A DNA stretch of 64,000 bases from Clostridia bacterium (GTDB lineage Bacteria > Bacillota > Limnochordia > DTU080 > RSA5): NCBI GenBank assembly GCA_002919235.1, contig PKEX01000008.1, positions 138,530 to 202,529 of the forward strand, read 5' to 3'. Position numbers and translations under genes: made by a program. Positions 25,842 to 55,621 of the stretch are shown here, in pieces (position 1 is the stretch's first letter; each line of letters opens with the position of its first letter). Below the pieces are notes generated by a model. It did no database searches. It saw only the letters and a list, made by a program, of their open reading frames with translations, and was not told the DNA's origin.

Positions 25842-26456
25842 GTGGTCCGTCTGGCTTCAATCATTCTTATCCTTATCCTATGCGTCAGCCTGGGCGGCCC
25901 GATCCTGGCGGCCCAGCCCATGGAGTACCGGCTGGGCGACCGGACGCTGAGCTACGGCGCGTGGGGTGCGGACGTCTTCGAGCTTCAGCTGCGCCTGAGG
26001 GAGCTGGGCTACTCCCTGGCGGCGGACGGGCACTTCGGCTCCGAAACCCGCCGCGTGGTCACGGCGTTCCAGCTCGCGTACGGCCTGAGGCCTGACGGCA
26101 TCGCCGGACCCGCCACCCTCGCGGCCCTGCAGTCGCTGCGGAGCACCTTCACCTACGTGGTCCAGCCCGGGGATTCCCTCTGGGCCATCGCCCGGCGCTT
26201 CGGCGTCTCCATGGAGGAGATCGTCAGGCTGAACAACCTGCCCGACCGGCCGCTCTGGGTGGGAGACCGCCTGATCCTGCCGGCCCGGCCGGTGTACCGG
26301 GTGCAGCCCGGCGACACGCTGTGGGAGATCGCACGGCGGTTCGGCACCACGGTCGAGGAGCTAGCAGAGCTCAACGGCATCGCCGATCCTTCCCGGATCC
26401 GCGCCGGGTCAGAGCTGCGGCTGCCCGCCGGAGCGCTCCCGGCCGGCGGCTTTTGA
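25842..26456 (+). CDS. Secreted peptidoglycan-binding protein (PG_binding_1-like domain plus two LysM domains)
   Basis: GTG at 25842 lies 6 nt after GAGGAGG. Hydrophobic signal (LASIILILILCVSLGGPILAAQP). LysM repeats YVVQPGDSLWAIARRFG and YRVQPGDTLWEIARRFG. Confidence 0.75.
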   Translation: MVRLASIILILILCVSLGGPILAAQPMEYRLGDRTLSYGAWGADVFELQLRLRELGYSLAADGHFGSETRRVVTAFQLAYGLRPDGIAGPATLAALQSLRSTFTYVVQPGDSLWAIARRFGVSMEEIVRLNNLPDRPLWVGDRLILPARPVYRVQPGDTLWEIARRFGTTVEELAELNGIADPSRIRAGSELRLPAGALPAGGF

Positions 26457-38124: not shown

Positions 38125-41100
38125 TCAGTAGAAGTCGTGCGAATCGGGGGCCGCTTTGAGCAGCTGCCCGCCGTCCAGGGAGACCACGTCGCCGAGGGGC
38201 CACACGTCCTCCGCCGGAAAGCTCAAGGTCCCTTCGATCCGCTGCACCTTCCCCGCCACCAAGAGCAGGCTTTCCCCCCGGATCACCGCCTTCTTTCGCT
38301 CGTAAAGATCGGGACGGATCACCACGTTGACCATCCCCGTCTCGTCTTCGAGGAGCAAGAAGACGATGCCCCGGGCGGTCTCGGGCCTCTGGCGCGCCAC
38401 CACCAGGCCGGCCACGTACCCCTTCTTGCCGTGGGACGCCCGGCTCATGGCCTGGACGGTGAACACGCGGCGCGAAAGGCGCGGCCGGAGAAGCTCCAGC
38501 AGGTGCTTCCCCGCGGAAAGCCCCGTCGCGGCATAGTCGGCCAGCACCTTTTCCCACGGGTCCATTTCAGGCAGTTCGACCTCGGGCACGTCGTACGCCA
38601 GCGGCAGGGGGACCTGGTAGGCGAAAGCCTGCCTTGCAGCTTTGCCGGTGCCGTCCCCTTTCTCGCCCCCGGCTCCCTCCAGGGCGGCCCTGCCGAGGCT
38701 TGTGGCCCGCGGCGCGAGGCCCAGCTTCCACAAGAGTTCCCGGCGGTCTTTGCCCAGGCGGTCGAAGGCGCCCGCCCAGATCAGGCGTTCCAGCTTGGCC
38801 TGGGGCAGGTCCACCCGGCGGCAGAAGTTGTCCAGGTCCGAAAACGGCCCTCCCCGCTCCCGCTCCGCGACGATCCGGGCGGCGTCCCGCGCTCCCAGCC
38901 CCTTGACGTAGTTGAACCCGAGGCGCACGGCGTTCCCCTTCACCGTGCACTTTACCCGGCTCTCATTGATGTCCGGCGGCAAGATCTCCACCCCGCGGCG
39001 CTTTGCGTCCCGCACGAGGGCGTGGGGCGGGTAAAACCCCATCGGCTGGCTGTTGAACAGGGCCGCCGTGTATTCCGCCGGGAAATACGTCCTGAGCCAC
39101 GCCGACTGGTACGCCAGGACGGCGAAGGCGTAGGCGTGGGACTTGGGAAACCCGAACTGGGAGAAGGCCAGGATCTTCTTAAAGACCAGCTCGGTGACGT
39201 CGTCCGGAACGCCTTTCTTGCGGGCCCCGTCGCGAAAGCTCTCGTAGAGCTGGGCCACGGCCTCTTCGGAGTTGCGCCTTCCCAGCGCCCGCCGCAGGGA
39301 TTCGGCTTGCCCCGGGGTAAACCCGGCCAGCGCCATGGCCACCTGGAGCACCTGGTCCTGGTAGAGAATGACGCCCAGGGTCTCCTCCAGCGCCGGTTCC
39401 AGGAGCGGGTGGTCGTACGGCGGGGTGTAAGGTCTCCCCTCTTTCGCCGCCCGCCGCTGCTCCGCTTTGCGCTGGACGTACGGGTGGACGGCGCCGCCCA
39501 CGATGGGGCCGGGGCGGACGATCGCGATCTCGATCGCGAGCTCGTCGAGGCTGCGGGGCTGCGTCCGGGGGAGCAGCTGGATCTGGGCCCGGCTTTCGAT
39601 CTGGAAGACCCCCACCGTATCCCCGGCCGCGATCTGGTCGTACACCACGGGGTCGTCGAAGGGGATGCGGCTCAGGTCGACGGGAGGCAGTTCCGGCCGG
39701 TTCTCGGCGATGAGCTCGACGCACTCCTCCACCAGCGAGAGCATGCCCAGGGCGAGGAAGTCCACCTTGATAAAGCGGGCGTCCTCGCACGAGTCCTTGT
39801 CCCACTGGCAGACCACCCGCCCCGGCATGCCGGCCTTTTCCAGCGGCACCAGCTCCACCAGGGGCCTGGACGAGATCACCATCCCCCCCACGTGCTGGGA
39901 GATGTGGCGGGGAAACCCCGAGATCTCCTCCGCCAGGGAAATCAGATCCCGCCAGAGCGGCGCTTCGACCTTGTCCCGGAACCCGGGCAGCGAGAGCATC
40001 ACCTCCCGCAGGCGCCTGCTGGACCCGCCTTCGCTGAGCTTGGCCAGCTTGTCCAGGTCCTGGAGCGGCAGCCCCAACGCCTTGCCGATGTCCCGCACGG
40101 CGCTGCGCAGCCTGTAGGTGGCGAACGAGCAGACCAGCGCCGCGTGCTCCCGGCCGTAGTGCTGGTACACCCGTTGGATCAGCGCCTCGCGGATGTCCCG
40201 GGGAAAATCGAGGTCGATGTCGGGCACCACCTCCAGCGTCTCGTTGAGAAAGCGGTCGATCGACAGGCGGTTTTGAATGGGATCGACGTGGGACAAGCCG
40301 ATCAGGTAGCAGATGAGCGAGCTGACCGAGCTGCCTCGCCCTCTTCCCGGGGGAAGGCGCGCCGCCTTGCGCGCCGCGCTGGTCCCCCGGACTTCTTGGG
40401 CCACCTCTTCCGCAAGGCGCATCAGGTCCCGGTAGACCAGGAAAAAGCCGGAAAGGCCGTGCCGCCGCACCAGCGCGAGCTCCTGGTCGAGCCGCGCCTC
40501 GGCTTGGCGGTAGAGCGAAGGCGGGCCGGAGCCGTACCGCTCCGCCAGGAGCGCCTGGCACACCCGCTCCAGCTGCTGATCCGCGGTCTCCTCATCGCCT
40601 TCCCGCTGGAAATCGGGGAAGGTGTAGCCCAGGTCGGCGGTGAGGTCGAACCCCTGGCAGCGCTCGCTCAAGATCTCGGTGGCCCGCAGCGCCTCCGGCA
40701 GCTCCCTGAACGCCCGGGCCATCTCCTGCGGGGACTTGAGATAGTACTCCGAGTTGGGGCGGCGCAGCCGGTGCGACGCGTCCAGGGTCGTCCGGTGCTT
40801 GATGGCCACCAGCACGTCCTGCAGCCGGTGGCGCTCCCGCACGTGATAGTGCACGTTGTTGGTGGCGACGACGCCCACCCCCAGGCGGCGGGCCACCTCC
40901 ACCAGGCGGCGCACCCGCGCCGTATCGCCCCGGGCTTTGTGGTGCTGCAGCTCCACCCACACCCGGTCGCGGCCGAACACCTCTAGATACGCCTTGAGCC
41001 GCTGGACCGCGTCGCCCAGCCGGCCTTGGTCCACCAGGGAGGGAATCTCGCCCTTGGGACAGCCCGTCAGGGCGATCAGCCCCTGGGAATGGCGAGCCAG

Positions 41101-41436
41101 GAGCTCCCACTCGACCCGGGGAGAGCCCCGGGGATGGTCGAGGTGGGCGCGGCTCAGGAGCCGGCAGAGATTGGCGTACCCCTGGGGGCTTTCCACGAGG
41201 AGCGTGAGATGGGCGCCGCTCGCCAGGGTGACCTCGGCCCCGGTGACGGGCTGCACCCCCCAGGCCTTGGCCGCCTGCGCGAAGGCCATGGCGCCGTAGA
41301 GCCCGTCGTGATCGGTGAGCGCCACGGCCTTGAGCCCGAGCTTGTGCGCCTGGAGGGCCAGCTCCTCGGGGAGCGAGGCGCCGTCCAGGAAAGAGTAGGC
41401 AGAATGGGCGTGGAGTTCAGCGTAGACCGGCATCAT
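38125..41436 (-). CDS. dnaE2: Error-prone DNA polymerase of the DnaE family (DnaE2/ImuC type)
   Basis: N-terminal PHP domain (YAELHAHSAYSFLDG) and a polIII-alpha core, about 1100 aa. Directly downstream of a Y-family polymerase gene and LexA boxes. ATG at 41436 overlaps the stop of the upstream small ORF. Confidence 0.85.
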   Translation of the reverse strand: MMPVYAELHAHSAYSFLDGASLPEELALQAHKLGLKAVALTDHDGLYGAMAFAQAAKAWGVQPVTGAEVTLASGAHLTLLVESPQGYANLCRLLSRAHLDHPRGSPRVEWELLARHSQGLIALTGCPKGEIPSLVDQGRLGDAVQRLKAYLEVFGRDRVWVELQHHKARGDTARVRRLVEVARRLGVGVVATNNVHYHVRERHRLQDVLVAIKHRTTLDASHRLRRPNSEYYLKSPQEMARAFRELPEALRATEILSERCQGFDLTADLGYTFPDFQREGDEETADQQLERVCQALLAERYGSGPPSLYRQAEARLDQELALVRRHGLSGFFLVYRDLMRLAEEVAQEVRGTSAARKAARLPPGRGRGSSVSSLICYLIGLSHVDPIQNRLSIDRFLNETLEVVPDIDLDFPRDIREALIQRVYQHYGREHAALVCSFATYRLRSAVRDIGKALGLPLQDLDKLAKLSEGGSSRRLREVMLSLPGFRDKVEAPLWRDLISLAEEISGFPRHISQHVGGMVISSRPLVELVPLEKAGMPGRVVCQWDKDSCEDARFIKVDFLALGMLSLVEECVELIAENRPELPPVDLSRIPFDDPVVYDQIAAGDTVGVFQIESRAQIQLLPRTQPRSLDELAIEIAIVRPGPIVGGAVHPYVQRKAEQRRAAKEGRPYTPPYDHPLLEPALEETLGVILYQDQVLQVAMALAGFTPGQAESLRRALGRRNSEEAVAQLYESFRDGARKKGVPDDVTELVFKKILAFSQFGFPKSHAYAFAVLAYQSAWLRTYFPAEYTAALFNSQPMGFYPPHALVRDAKRRGVEILPPDINESRVKCTVKGNAVRLGFNYVKGLGARDAARIVAERERGGPFSDLDNFCRRVDLPQAKLERLIWAGAFDRLGKDRRELLWKLGLAPRATSLGRAALEGAGGEKGDGTGKAARQAFAYQVPLPLAYDVPEVELPEMDPWEKVLADYAATGLSAGKHLLELLRPRLSRRVFTVQAMSRASHGKKGYVAGLVVARQRPETARGIVFLLLEDETGMVNVVIRPDLYERKKAVIRGESLLLVAGKVQRIEGTLSFPAEDVWPLGDVVSLDGGQLLKAAPDSHDFY

Positions 41437-41743
41437 CGGCGTATCGCCCTCGCCCGGCTGGTGCATCGTCGACGTCAACGGCTGGATGGGGGAAGGCGAG
41501 GCCGCCGGGAGCATAGAGCGGGACGCTCTCCCGCTGGCGGTACCAGGCCCCGGTCTCCAGGTCGCAAAAGAGGACGTCGAGGCGGCCGTCCTCCAGCTCC
41601 ACCAGGTAATAGAGGCGGTGGATCGGCCGGCGCCACCACTCGTCGTCGATCCGCCAAAGGTCCCGGACGGCCGTGACCCCTTGCCGGCGTCCCCGCCAGA
41701 TGAGAGAGAGGGGCCGTCCCTCCCGGTCGCAGGCCACTTTCAC
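41417..41743 (-). CDS. Uncharacterised small protein (about 108 aa) between imuB and dnaE2, Trp/Arg-rich
   Basis: High GC3 in this frame from the GTG at 41743 (14 nt after the imuB stop). An alternative ATG at 41809 lies 6 nt after GGAGGT. The stop overlaps the dnaE2 start (ATGATGCC...TGA). Confidence 0.55.
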   Translation of the reverse strand: MKVACDREGRPLSLIWRGRRQGVTAVRDLWRIDDEWWRRPIHRLYYLVELEDGRLDVLFCDLETGAWYRQRESVPLYAPGGLAFPHPAVDVDDAPAGRGRYADDAGLR

Positions 41744-41757
41744 CGGCTGGGGCTGGT

Positions 41758-43023
41758 TTAAGGATCGAAGTCGATCAGGGCGTAGCGGCGCTCCGGAATG
41801 CGGGACCATGGTTCTACCTCCGCGATGCGAAAAAGGCCGGTAGTGCCGTAACGGGCCTTGACCGCGGCCAAGGCGTCTTTGAGGCGCGCGAGCCTCTGGC
41901 CGCCGCCGGGAAAGAGCGGCTCCTGGCCGACGTAAGGCCCTCCCAGCAGCGTCACTTTGAGCGTGACGGCCGAAACCGCCCCCGGCAGCTCCACCCCTGC
42001 GAGCCTGCGGGCCAGCATCGCCTCCAGCCTTTCGGGATCGCCCACCGGCTCGTGCAGCGTGATGCTCTTCTCCCACGTCTCTTCGTCGATGCGAGCGGCG
42101 AGGACAAGCTGGCGCACCGTCGCCTCTCCCCGCTCCTTGCGCCGCCACACCCGGGCGACCAGCTGCCGGATCCCCGCCCAAAACGCGGCCCACTCGCTGA
42201 CCGGCGCGGGAAACTCAAGGCTTTCGGCGATGGGGCGGAAGGGGCGGCGCGGCACCAGCGCCGAATCGTCCCGTCCCCGGGAAAGCTCCCAGGCCCGGCG
42301 GCCTTCGGGACCCAGGCGCGCCTCGAGCGCGGCAGGATGCAGCGCGGCGATCTGGCCCAGGCGCTCAAGGCCAAAGAGGGAAAGGCTGCGCTGGGTCTCG
42401 CCGCTCACCGGCAGGTGATCAATGGGACACGGGGCGAGAAACCGCTCTATCTCATGCCGCAGCACGATCCGGGGGCGGCCTCGCGGTGCGTGCCATGCGG
42501 CGACGCCGGCCACGAACTTGTTGGGACCGGCGCCGGCCCGGACGTCAAAGAGGCCCTCTGCCGCCGGGCTGCCCGCGGCCGGTCCCAGCCCGCGCCTTAC
42601 GGCGGCGTCGACGAGGCGTTCCAAAAGCGCTCCGAGCTTGGGATAGAGGCGCTCCATCCCCGTGAGATCCACGTATGCCGCGCCCAGGCCGGCGTCTTCC
42701 ACCGCGGGCGCCTCCGCCTCCAGGACGTCGAGAAAGGCGTCGTGAAGGCGCTGGTACCACTCGGGATCCGGCGAGAGCGCCACCACGTCGCGGCACAGGG
42801 CGATGCTCTCGCGCACCCGCATTCCCAGGCGGATCCCCCGCTCCGCCGCCTCCGGCGAGCAGTGTGCGACGGGCAGCGCCGCCGCTCCGCCGGAGGCGGC
42901 GCGCGCCGTGATGACGAACGGCCGGCCCCGCAGCCCGGGGCGGCGGGCCAGCTCGGCTTGAACGGGAAAATCGGGAACGCGGATGCACCCGATCCAGCGA
43001 CGGCTGGTGCGTGCAGCAGGCAT
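41758..43023 (-). CDS. imuB: Y-family DNA polymerase-like protein (ImuB-type)
   Basis: IGCIRVPDFPVQ N-terminus typical of DinB/ImuB. 421 aa. ATG at 43023 lies 9 nt after AAAGGAG. Confidence 0.8.
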   Translation of the reverse strand: MPAARTSRRWIGCIRVPDFPVQAELARRPGLRGRPFVITARAASGGAAALPVAHCSPEAAERGIRLGMRVRESIALCRDVVALSPDPEWYQRLHDAFLDVLEAEAPAVEDAGLGAAYVDLTGMERLYPKLGALLERLVDAAVRRGLGPAAGSPAAEGLFDVRAGAGPNKFVAGVAAWHAPRGRPRIVLRHEIERFLAPCPIDHLPVSGETQRSLSLFGLERLGQIAALHPAALEARLGPEGRRAWELSRGRDDSALVPRRPFRPIAESLEFPAPVSEWAAFWAGIRQLVARVWRRKERGEATVRQLVLAARIDEETWEKSITLHEPVGDPERLEAMLARRLAGVELPGAVSAVTLKVTLLGGPYVGQEPLFPGGGQRLARLKDALAAVKARYGTTGLFRIAEVEPWSRIPERRYALIDFDP

Positions 43024-43075
43024 CGACACGCGCTCCTTTCGCGCCGCCCGGCTGCCCCGCCGGGCGGCGCTGTTT

Positions 43076-43089
43076 CGAACGGGTGTTCG
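43076..43089 (-). promoter_or_regulatory. LexA operator, Gram-positive Cheo-box type (CGAACGGGTGTTCG)
   Basis: Perfect CGAAC-N4-GTTCG palindrome just downstream of the -10 element of the imuB promoter. Confidence 0.65.
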
Positions 43090-43090
43090 T

Positions 43091-43120
43091 ATTTTAACCG
43101 AACGCGTGTACGCCTGTCAA
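43091..43120 (-). promoter_or_regulatory. Sigma-A-like promoter of the imuB - small ORF - dnaE2 operon (-35 TTGACA, 17-18-bp spacer, -10 TTAAAAT)
   Basis: Perfect TTGACA at 43115-43120 on the minus strand. The AT-rich -10 is the only such element in the region and is interleaved with the LexA boxes. Confidence 0.55.
43099..43112 (-). promoter_or_regulatory. Second, imperfect LexA box (CGAACGCGTGTACG) inside the promoter spacer
   Basis: One mismatch in the right arm (GTAC instead of GTTC). 9 bp from the first box. Confidence 0.5.
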
Positions 43121-43148: not shown

Positions 43149-43904
43149 TCACATGTAGGATCCGCCGTTGATGGCCAGCACCTGGCCCGTCATCAGGTCG
43201 GAGAACTTGGAGACCAGCACCAGCGCCCCGTCGGCGATCTCGTCCGCCGTGGCCAGCCGTCCCAAGGGGATCTCTTCGATGAGCTTCGCCCGCACCGCCG
43301 GATCGTCCAGGCCGAACCGCTTCACCACGTCCTCCGTCTCCGTAAAGCCCGGCATCAGGCAGTTGACCTGCGCCCAAGGCGCGAGCTCCCTGGCAAAGCA
43401 CTTGGTGAGGGCGAGGACGCCCGCCTTGGCCGCGCAGTAGTTCGCCCCGTTCTTGCGCCCCCTCAGGGCGGACGCCGCCGAGACCATGATCACCTTTCCT
43501 GCCCCCCTCGCCCTCATGGCCGGGATCGCCGCCTGCGTGCACAAGAACGCCCCTTTTAAGTTGACCTCCACCACCCGGTCCCAGTCCTCTTCAGACATCT
43601 CCTCCGCCGGCCCGTCCCGGGCGACCCCCGCGTTGTTCACCAGGATGTCGAGGCCCCCCCACTCGTCCACGATGCGCTCGACCATGGAGCGGACTTCGTC
43701 GCGCCGCGCCACGTCAGCCCTCACCGCCAGCGCCTCCCCGCCGTCCCTGCGGATCTCCTGGACCACCTCCCGGGCCCGCTCGGCCGAAGAGAGATAGTTG
43801 ACGGCCACCTTGGCACCCTCCCGGGCGAACCGCCGGGCGATGGCCCTTCCAATCCCCCGGCTGGCGCCGGTGACCAACGCGATCTTGCCGTCCAAACAGC
43901 CCAT
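43149..43904 (-). CDS. Short-chain dehydrogenase/reductase (FabG-like 3-oxoacyl-ACP reductase family)
   Basis: TGASRGIG cofactor motif, NNAG and the S...YxxxK catalytic pattern (YCAAK). Confidence 0.8.
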   Translation of the reverse strand: MGCLDGKIALVTGASRGIGRAIARRFAREGAKVAVNYLSSAERAREVVQEIRRDGGEALAVRADVARRDEVRSMVERIVDEWGGLDILVNNAGVARDGPAEEMSEEDWDRVVEVNLKGAFLCTQAAIPAMRARGAGKVIMVSAASALRGRKNGANYCAAKAGVLALTKCFARELAPWAQVNCLMPGFTETEDVVKRFGLDDPAVRAKLIEEIPLGRLATADEIADGALVLVSKFSDLMTGQVLAINGGSYM

Positions 43905-54713: not shown

Positions 54714-54832
54714 CGCGTCTTCCCCCTCAGCTTGCGTCTGCCAGATCCCGTTCGACGTCACGGGGGATCGAAGGGAAAGCGGCAGCCATGACCCTAGGCA
54801 TAGTCCGCGTTCCATTCTAATATACGGCGAAT

Positions 54833-55621
54833 CTAAGTGTCAAGGCGAAGACCCTGTCTCTCCCCCGGCGTCCCCGGCGGGTAAGCCACCCACATGAGCG
54901 TCAGCCCTTTGCCGGGAAGCGTGGGCCCTGCCATCCGGCGGTCTTTGGAAGCCAGCACCTCCCGCACCCACTCGGGATCCCGCTTGCCCTTGCCCACCTC
55001 TACCAGAGTCCCGGCGATGATTCGCACCATGTGAAAGAGAAAGCCGTCGGCCTCCAAGGTGATGGCCACCAGGCCGTCCCGGGCCGTGACGTCGCAGCGG
55101 GTCACCGTCCGCACCGTGCTGCGCCCGGCGTGGCCGGAGCCGGCAAAGGCCTTGAAGTCGTGGCGCCCTACCAGGTACTGGGCGGCCCGGTCCATCGCCT
55201 CGACGTCCAAAGGGCGGGAGACGAAGTGGGTGTAGTGCCGCAGCAGGGGCGAGGGAAACGGGCGGTTGTCGATGCGGTAGACGTACTGCTTCGCCACCGC
55301 CCAGTAACGGGCGTGAAACTCCAGCGGCACCTCGACCGCCCCTACTACCCGGATGTCCGGCGGCAGCACGCCGTTCATCGCGTAGGGGACTCGCTCCGCC
55401 GGGATGGCGTCCGAGGCGGTCCTGAAGTTGACCACCTGTCCTTCCGCATGCACCCCGGCATCGGTCCGGCCGGCGCCGATCACCTTCACGCGCTCGCCCA
55501 CCAGGCGTTCCCACGCCCGCTCCAGCTCCCTTTGGATGGTGGGGCGGTCACTGAGGCCCTGGTCCTGAAAACCGTGGTAGTGGGTGCCGTCGTACGCCAC
55601 CGTCAGCTTCAGGTTCCGCAC
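54833..55621 (-). CDS. truA: tRNA pseudouridine(38-40) synthase
   Basis: [10 protein letters not shown] and [11 protein letters not shown] (catalytic Asp) motifs. GTG start at 55621. Confidence 0.9.

Follow-up and report, generated by a model that had tools for sequence, protein, structure and literature searches.

A predicted twin LexA-type operator at the promoter of an ImuA-less DnaE2 cassette in an uncultivated high-GC Bacillota lineage

The LexA operator of Bacillus is the palindrome GAAC-N4-GTTC, and derepression comes late at operators that release LexA slowly (PMC4234289). LexA also regulates the imuA-imuB-dnaE2 cassette in many bacteria, and in Caulobacter, Pseudomonas and Mycobacterium this cassette co-transcribes a catalytically dead Y-family protein and DnaE2 from behind a LexA-type operator (PMC6511836). 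A further arrangement, the Kyrpidia tusciae-type operon, consists of a Y-family polymerase that is inactive, a free-standing ImuB-C and DnaE2, as given in the available portions of Timinskas and Venclovas 2019 and Aravind et al. 2013. Those portions of the two papers contain no account of promoter or operator architecture.

Here we analysed a 64-kb stretch of DNA from a Clostridia bacterium assembly (the window; 69% GC), in which an initial annotation had reported two LexA-type boxes interleaved with a promoter ahead of polymerase genes. Contigs VSCS01000002.1 (GCA_047459375.1) and PKRB02000002.1 (GCA_017577665.2), each from a MAG labelled 'Clostridia bacterium', match the window at 99.94-99.97% identity. 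By ImuB identity, the closest other genomes were MAG RSA8 (72%), a Limnochordia MAG (56%) and a Clostridia MAG (53%), followed by many Chloroflexota at 33-42%; Limnochordia is a class of Bacillota. The region in question very probably represents the SOS-controlled promoter/operator of a three-gene mutagenic translesion-synthesis operon, made up of imuB-like, imuB-C-like and dnaE2 genes. Its candidate operators share with the B. subtilis-type LexA (DinR) operators, or Cheo boxes, the palindrome itself, the overlap with a sigma-A promoter and a DNA-damage gene as the target. They differ from them in that two predicted sites bracket the -10 hexamer in fixed register, with a CGTAC outer half in the box of the spacer, and in that the host belongs to an uncultivated lineage of 69% GC related to Limnochordia/Clostridia.

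The cassette lies on the minus strand in the order imuB-like gene, small ORF and dnaE2, an order that is kept in relatives. Its genes and the ribosome-binding site of the first are as follows.

43033-43039, minus strand: ribosome-binding site AAAGGAG, 9 nt ahead of the ATG at 43023
41758-43023, minus strand: imuB-like gene, 421 aa, with Pfam IMS and IMS_C
41417-41809, minus strand: small ORF, 130 aa, ATG at 41809, with a 52-nt overlap with the end of imuB
38125-41436, minus strand: dnaE2, error-prone C-family DNA polymerase, 1103 aa, with a 20-nt overlap with the small ORF

The description of the downstream genes as polymerase genes proved correct, the first encoding an imuB-like protein predicted to be an inactive Y-family polymerase and the last a DnaE2 that scored above the NCBIfam cut-off for 'error-prone DNA polymerase' (NF004225; 1020 bits, cut-off 939). 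The Pfam domains of DnaE2 are PHP, DNA_pol3_alpha, finger, HHH_6 and OB. The imuB-like protein scored far under every DinB and UmuC cut-off, and its homologues are named 'protein ImuB' in several database sources. In a HMMER alignment, residues D103/E104 of E. coli DinB correspond to G/A in the imuB-like protein; the alignment begins just past DinB D8, which corresponds to R by manual extension. Since the catalytic D103/E104 (and D8) are replaced, the product is predicted to be a Y-family polymerase homologue that lacks the catalytic acidic residues and is catalytically dead. The protein ends at residue 421 with IMS and IMS_C only, leaving no fused C-terminal ImuB-C domain.

Relatives also encode the small ORF between imuB and dnaE2, and in them it overlaps imuB by 52 nt in the same way. 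NCBI annotates this ORF as 108 aa from a GTG at 41743; because the N-terminal residues (MV.HS...LRPDRLR.LN) are conserved among homologues, we favour the ATG at 41809. The small protein matched DUF6504 with 19.9 bits, below the 24.2-bit cut-off. Its family included 2588 representatives at E <= 0.001, of which nearly all of the best 150 were ~95-200 aa long, and DUF6504 was matched by 8 of 34 sampled members (best 2e-7). A weak C-terminal match to DUF6504 was also present in P0109, a 503-aa homologue of ImuB. In P0219 (523 aa), which belongs to the small-protein family, the small protein is fused at the N-terminal end of, or was called together with, a DnaE-type polymerase having PHP and DNA_pol3_alpha domains; this would fit a direct functional connection of the small protein to DnaE2. 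Comparison of the small-ORF profile with PDB sequences gave noise only, and a full-text literature search for DUF6504 retrieved no papers. The small protein may be a standalone ImuB-C-like protein, an identification based on sub-threshold DUF6504 matches and gene context. The overlaps of 52 nt and 20 nt between the reading frames suggest that the three proteins are translationally coupled.

No imuA was found in the operon or in the window, the upstream gene encoding an SDR/FabG-like reductase. A RecA-like gene was detected neither by tblastn in the window nor in the gene tables of the near-identical and related contigs. The genome may still encode a highly divergent ImuA at another place. In contrast to the imuA-imuB-dnaE2 cassette, then, this operon is accompanied by no imuA within the window, its ImuB is short (421 aa), and its putative ImuB-C-like sequence forms a separate small gene instead of a fused domain. 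Gene content and order, including the absence of ImuA, are those of the Kyrpidia tusciae-type operon. A RecA-NT-like motif is predicted for the Kyrpidia tusciae-type polymerases; none was detected here with Pfam or BLASTP. DUF4113 was detected in 0 of 24 family members, and the BLASTP comparison with the E. coli RecA N-terminus gave no alignment. By eye, YGTTGLFRIAE resembles FGKGSIMRLGE of RecA, a resemblance that is only a lead.

Gene order from ~31400 to ~51700 is kept in relatives down to ~56-59% ImuB identity. The conserved stretch begins with an RND transporter, an unknown 268-aa protein, the SDR gene and the cassette. Past the cassette, the closest relatives carry MFS and CN-hydrolase genes, and genes for metallo-beta-lactamase-fold, ReoY-like, signal peptidase I and LysM proteins follow.

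Upstream of imuB, the elements of the predicted promoter and leader are arranged as listed here, with the two palindromic boxes given no strand.

43115-43120, minus strand: -35 hexamer TTGACA, with TTGAC invariant in 12 of 12 aligned sequences
43099-43112, no strand: LexA-type box A, CGTACACGCGTTCG on the minus strand, in the promoter spacer at ~-28 to -15
43091-43096, minus strand: -10 hexamer TAAAAT, 18 nt after the -35, with TAnnnT in all relatives
43076-43089, no strand: LexA-type box B, perfect CGAAC-N4-GTTCG, 1 nt downstream of the -10 at ~-5 to +9
43041-43070, minus strand: GC-rich hairpin with a 12-bp stem and a 6-nt loop, in the 5' UTR, lying between box B and the ribosome-binding site

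Two boxes 9 bp apart, one of them perfect, had been reported, and we recovered both. On the plus strand, box B (CGAACGGGTGTTCG) has 0 mismatches to CGAAC-N4-GTTCG and box A (CGAACGCGTGTACG) has 1, located in its outer half-site. The 9-bp gap from box B to box A reads TATTTTAAC on the plus strand; the boxes are 23 bp apart from start to start, and their centres, also 23 bp apart, are separated by ~2.2 helical turns. Read on the minus strand, the order is TTGACA-GG-CGTACACGCGTTCG-GT-TAAAAT-A-CGAACACCCGTTCG. This agrees with the interleaving of hexamers and boxes originally described, with box A within the spacer and box B 1 nt past the -10. The hexamers (TTGACA at 43120-43115 and TAAAAT at 43096-43091, with an 18-nt spacer) match 11 of 12 consensus positions, as expected of the near-consensus sigma-A promoter with a perfect TTGACA that the initial annotation had proposed. 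Two details of that annotation needed correction: the promoter reads along the minus strand, a point that had been left unstated, and the spacer is 18 nt, the optimum being 17. Transcription is predicted to start at an A at ~43084, which is covered by box B. The core of the palindrome is identical to the Bacillus operator GAAC-N4-GTTC (PMC4234289), which supports the proposed similarity to LexA-repressed genes of Gram-positive bacteria.

The number of single sites in the window is ordinary, with 3 sites of at most one mismatch found where 2.5-2.8 were expected. For the exact box the expectation is 0.055 per 64 kb, and the whole window contains a single exact core GAAC-N4-GTTC, within 43076-43089. 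In 200 windows simulated under a first-order Markov model, no two sites of at most one mismatch were separated by 10-40 bp, and the analytic expectation for such a pair is ~0.004 per 64 kb. It is the pairing, not the site count, that exceeds chance. The remark that no other such sites had been noticed in the window stood for the exact core and failed at one mismatch, where one further site is present at 26330-26343 (CGCACGGCGGTTCG). We dismissed this third site as a further operator, as it is intragenic, inside a 696-aa plus-strand ORF, and occurs at chance-level frequency.

A promoter-like site matching 11 of 12 positions was found once in the region, compared to 0.0 expected in shuffles. When both strands of the whole window were scanned, 2 sites reached at least 11 of 12, the cassette promoter and a site at 54843 on the minus strand that precedes rplM-rpsI. 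The latter (54814-54843, minus strand; TTGACA, 18 nt, TAGAAT; 11/12) lies upstream of rplM (L13) and rpsI (S9), with a leader of ~110 nt that reaches ~54697. Rfam searches of the window returned no family at gathering score, the ribosomal L13 leader included. Judged by consensus, the predicted cassette promoter is as strong as this ribosomal-protein promoter.

The comparison with close relatives was based on genome loci L001-L004 and metagenome loci L081, L082, L084 and L086-L090, where L089 duplicates L004, leaving 11 independent relatives from Limnochordia/Clostridia MAGs with 50-82% ImuB identity. All 11 carry TTGAC(A/G), a 17-18-nt spacer containing box A, TAnnnT and box B, and the flanks of this unit have diverged, which lends comparative support to the proposal of a specific SOS-type promoter. 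Box B lies 1-2 nt downstream of the -10 in relatives and 5 nt downstream in L088, the most divergent locus; the start-to-start spacing of the boxes is 23-24 bp in 10 of 11 relatives and 27 bp in L088. In a DNA alignment of 12 sequences, the invariant columns fell within both hexamers and both boxes, and flanking columns were not conserved. The half-sites adjoining the -10 are almost invariant (GTTCG upstream and CGAAC downstream). In box A, the outer half-site departs from the consensus in nearly every case; 7 of the 12 aligned sequences have CGTAC there. The relatives' loci add up to ~145 kb, in which the cassette promoter accounts for 19 boxes having no more than one mismatch and the remaining sequence for 3.

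These data also bear on whether the palindrome and the adjacent T-run might be a chance match or an intrinsic terminator, since a simple scan for terminator-like sites picks out CGAACGGGTGTTCG with TATTTTAACC after it on the plus strand. However, the stem has just 5 bp, and the T-run corresponds to the -10 hexamer of the promoter on the opposite strand. Nor does any plausible plus-strand gene have its end at this point, the ORFs of that strand being shadows antisense to imuB. Chance is excluded by the pair statistic together with the conservation, and we regard this explanation as almost certainly wrong. An SOS-type promoter overlapped by LexA-type boxes is the reading that we retain.

Chloroflexota cassettes carry a related signal. 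One exact GAAC-N4-GTTC is present within 300 bp upstream in 54 of 73 Chloroflexota loci (L005-L080), mostly in the form AGAAC-N4-GTTCT with an AT-rich centre. The density of boxes was 2.4 per kb upstream compared to 0.017 per kb over the remainder of these loci, a ~140-fold difference, and two exact boxes upstream were found in 0 of the 73 loci. The distance from the box to the imuB-like gene varies widely, from 5 to 221 bp, and some loci may therefore have long leaders or additional small genes upstream. The presence of boxes at both Limnochordia/Clostridia and Chloroflexota cassettes indicates that a LexA-type box follows the cassette across two phyla. The predicted twin arrangement, as judged from these loci, is specific to the lineage of the window.

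A single box suffices in the Chloroflexota cassettes, and box A is imperfect across the 12 aligned sequences, both of which would fit a model where box B alone is the working operator and box A is a decaying or chance half-match. However, the distance of box A to box B stays at 23-24 bp in 10 of 11 relatives, and the GTTCG half-site of box A is kept at 50-82% ImuB identity while the sequence upstream of the -35 is unconserved. This pattern argues for selection on box A, and we consider it improbable that box B acts alone. We therefore favour a promoter with two putative operators, in which box A may bind weakly on its own because its outer half-site is imperfect.

The presence of a cognate LexA in the host was assumed from taxonomy. 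With B. subtilis LexA and E. coli RecA as queries, tblastn searches that covered the window plus the first 80 related loci detected neither lexA nor recA. The only S24/S26-like gene in the window was ruled out as LexA, as it encodes signal peptidase I. The palindromes might instead be bound by a dedicated, non-housekeeping repressor, such as a second LexA paralogue or a cassette-specific helix-turn-helix protein, that responds to a different inducing signal. The absence of a tblastn hit to lexA in the window would fit this idea, as would the conserved CGTAC outer half-site of box A, which deviates from the canonical motif. Cassette-type operons often carry their own lexA (PMC6511836), and LexA-independent damage regulators are known too. 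Against a dedicated repressor, the motif is the exact Gram-positive LexA consensus, its core GAAC-N4-GTTC precedes the same cassette in another phylum (Chloroflexota), and no regulator gene lies in or beside the operon at any examined locus; we give it only a slim chance. Keeping to control by LexA, we infer LexA as the binding protein, as well as the start site, cooperative binding and induction by damage.

Between box B and the coding sequence, the 64-nt imuB 5' UTR is predicted to fold at -39.5 kcal/mol (z = -3.66), and the hairpin at 43041-43070 has no U tract downstream. GC hairpins that start with a similar GCGCCGCC arm occur in several relatives; their z-scores are mixed (-0.2 to -6.3), so we claim no conserved RNA element. 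The hairpin could act in mRNA stabilisation or in the modulation of translation. An Rfam match to Rhizobiales-2 at 42975-43070 on the plus strand (35.8 bits, gathering score 40; E = 0.009 in a 351-bp search) is probably due to chance, as it falls almost wholly on the GC hairpin and lacks the model's middle stem. On the upstream side, the SDR/FabG-like reductase gene is on the same strand and ends at 43149. No terminator-like site was found between this gene and the cassette promoter, and read-through transcription from the SDR gene, independent of LexA, is therefore possible.

In our model, two LexA dimers would be bound without DNA damage, one on box A in the spacer and one on box B at the start, so that the -10 hexamer is enclosed between them and RNA polymerase is kept off a near-consensus sigma-A promoter. 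The two dimers may bind cooperatively, and two operators on such a promoter may keep a mutagenic polymerase tightly off. Upon DNA damage, RecA-stimulated self-cleavage of LexA would free the promoter and yield a single transcript of the three genes with a leader of ~61 nt, and the three products would form an ImuA-less DnaE2 mutasome. A more specific version, which we offer tentatively and hold to be somewhat doubtful, is that this is a clade-specific twin operator, where LexA dimers would clamp the -10 through the invariant inner half-sites GTTCG-N2/3-TAAAAT-N1-CGAAC and the sub-optimal outer CGTAC would make release of the ImuA-less DnaE2 mutasome cooperative, switch-like and late in the SOS response.

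As predicted from its sequence, the locus is an ordinary SOS switch ahead of a DnaE2 cassette whose variant form is already known, in a lineage that has been little studied, and it leaves the understanding of the SOS response unchanged. What is new, and only mildly so, is that the putative twin operator is shared across the clade and that its imperfect outer half-site is conserved. The locus offers a compact natural case of a strong promoter silenced by two putative operators flanking the -10, and the 24 aligned operator sequences can seed a LexA weight matrix for the lineage. Collectively, these findings would extend the known LexA control of DnaE2 mutagenesis to a high-GC lineage of Bacillota that is uncultivated and has Limnochordia/Clostridia as its relatives, as well as to a cassette variant that lacks ImuA.
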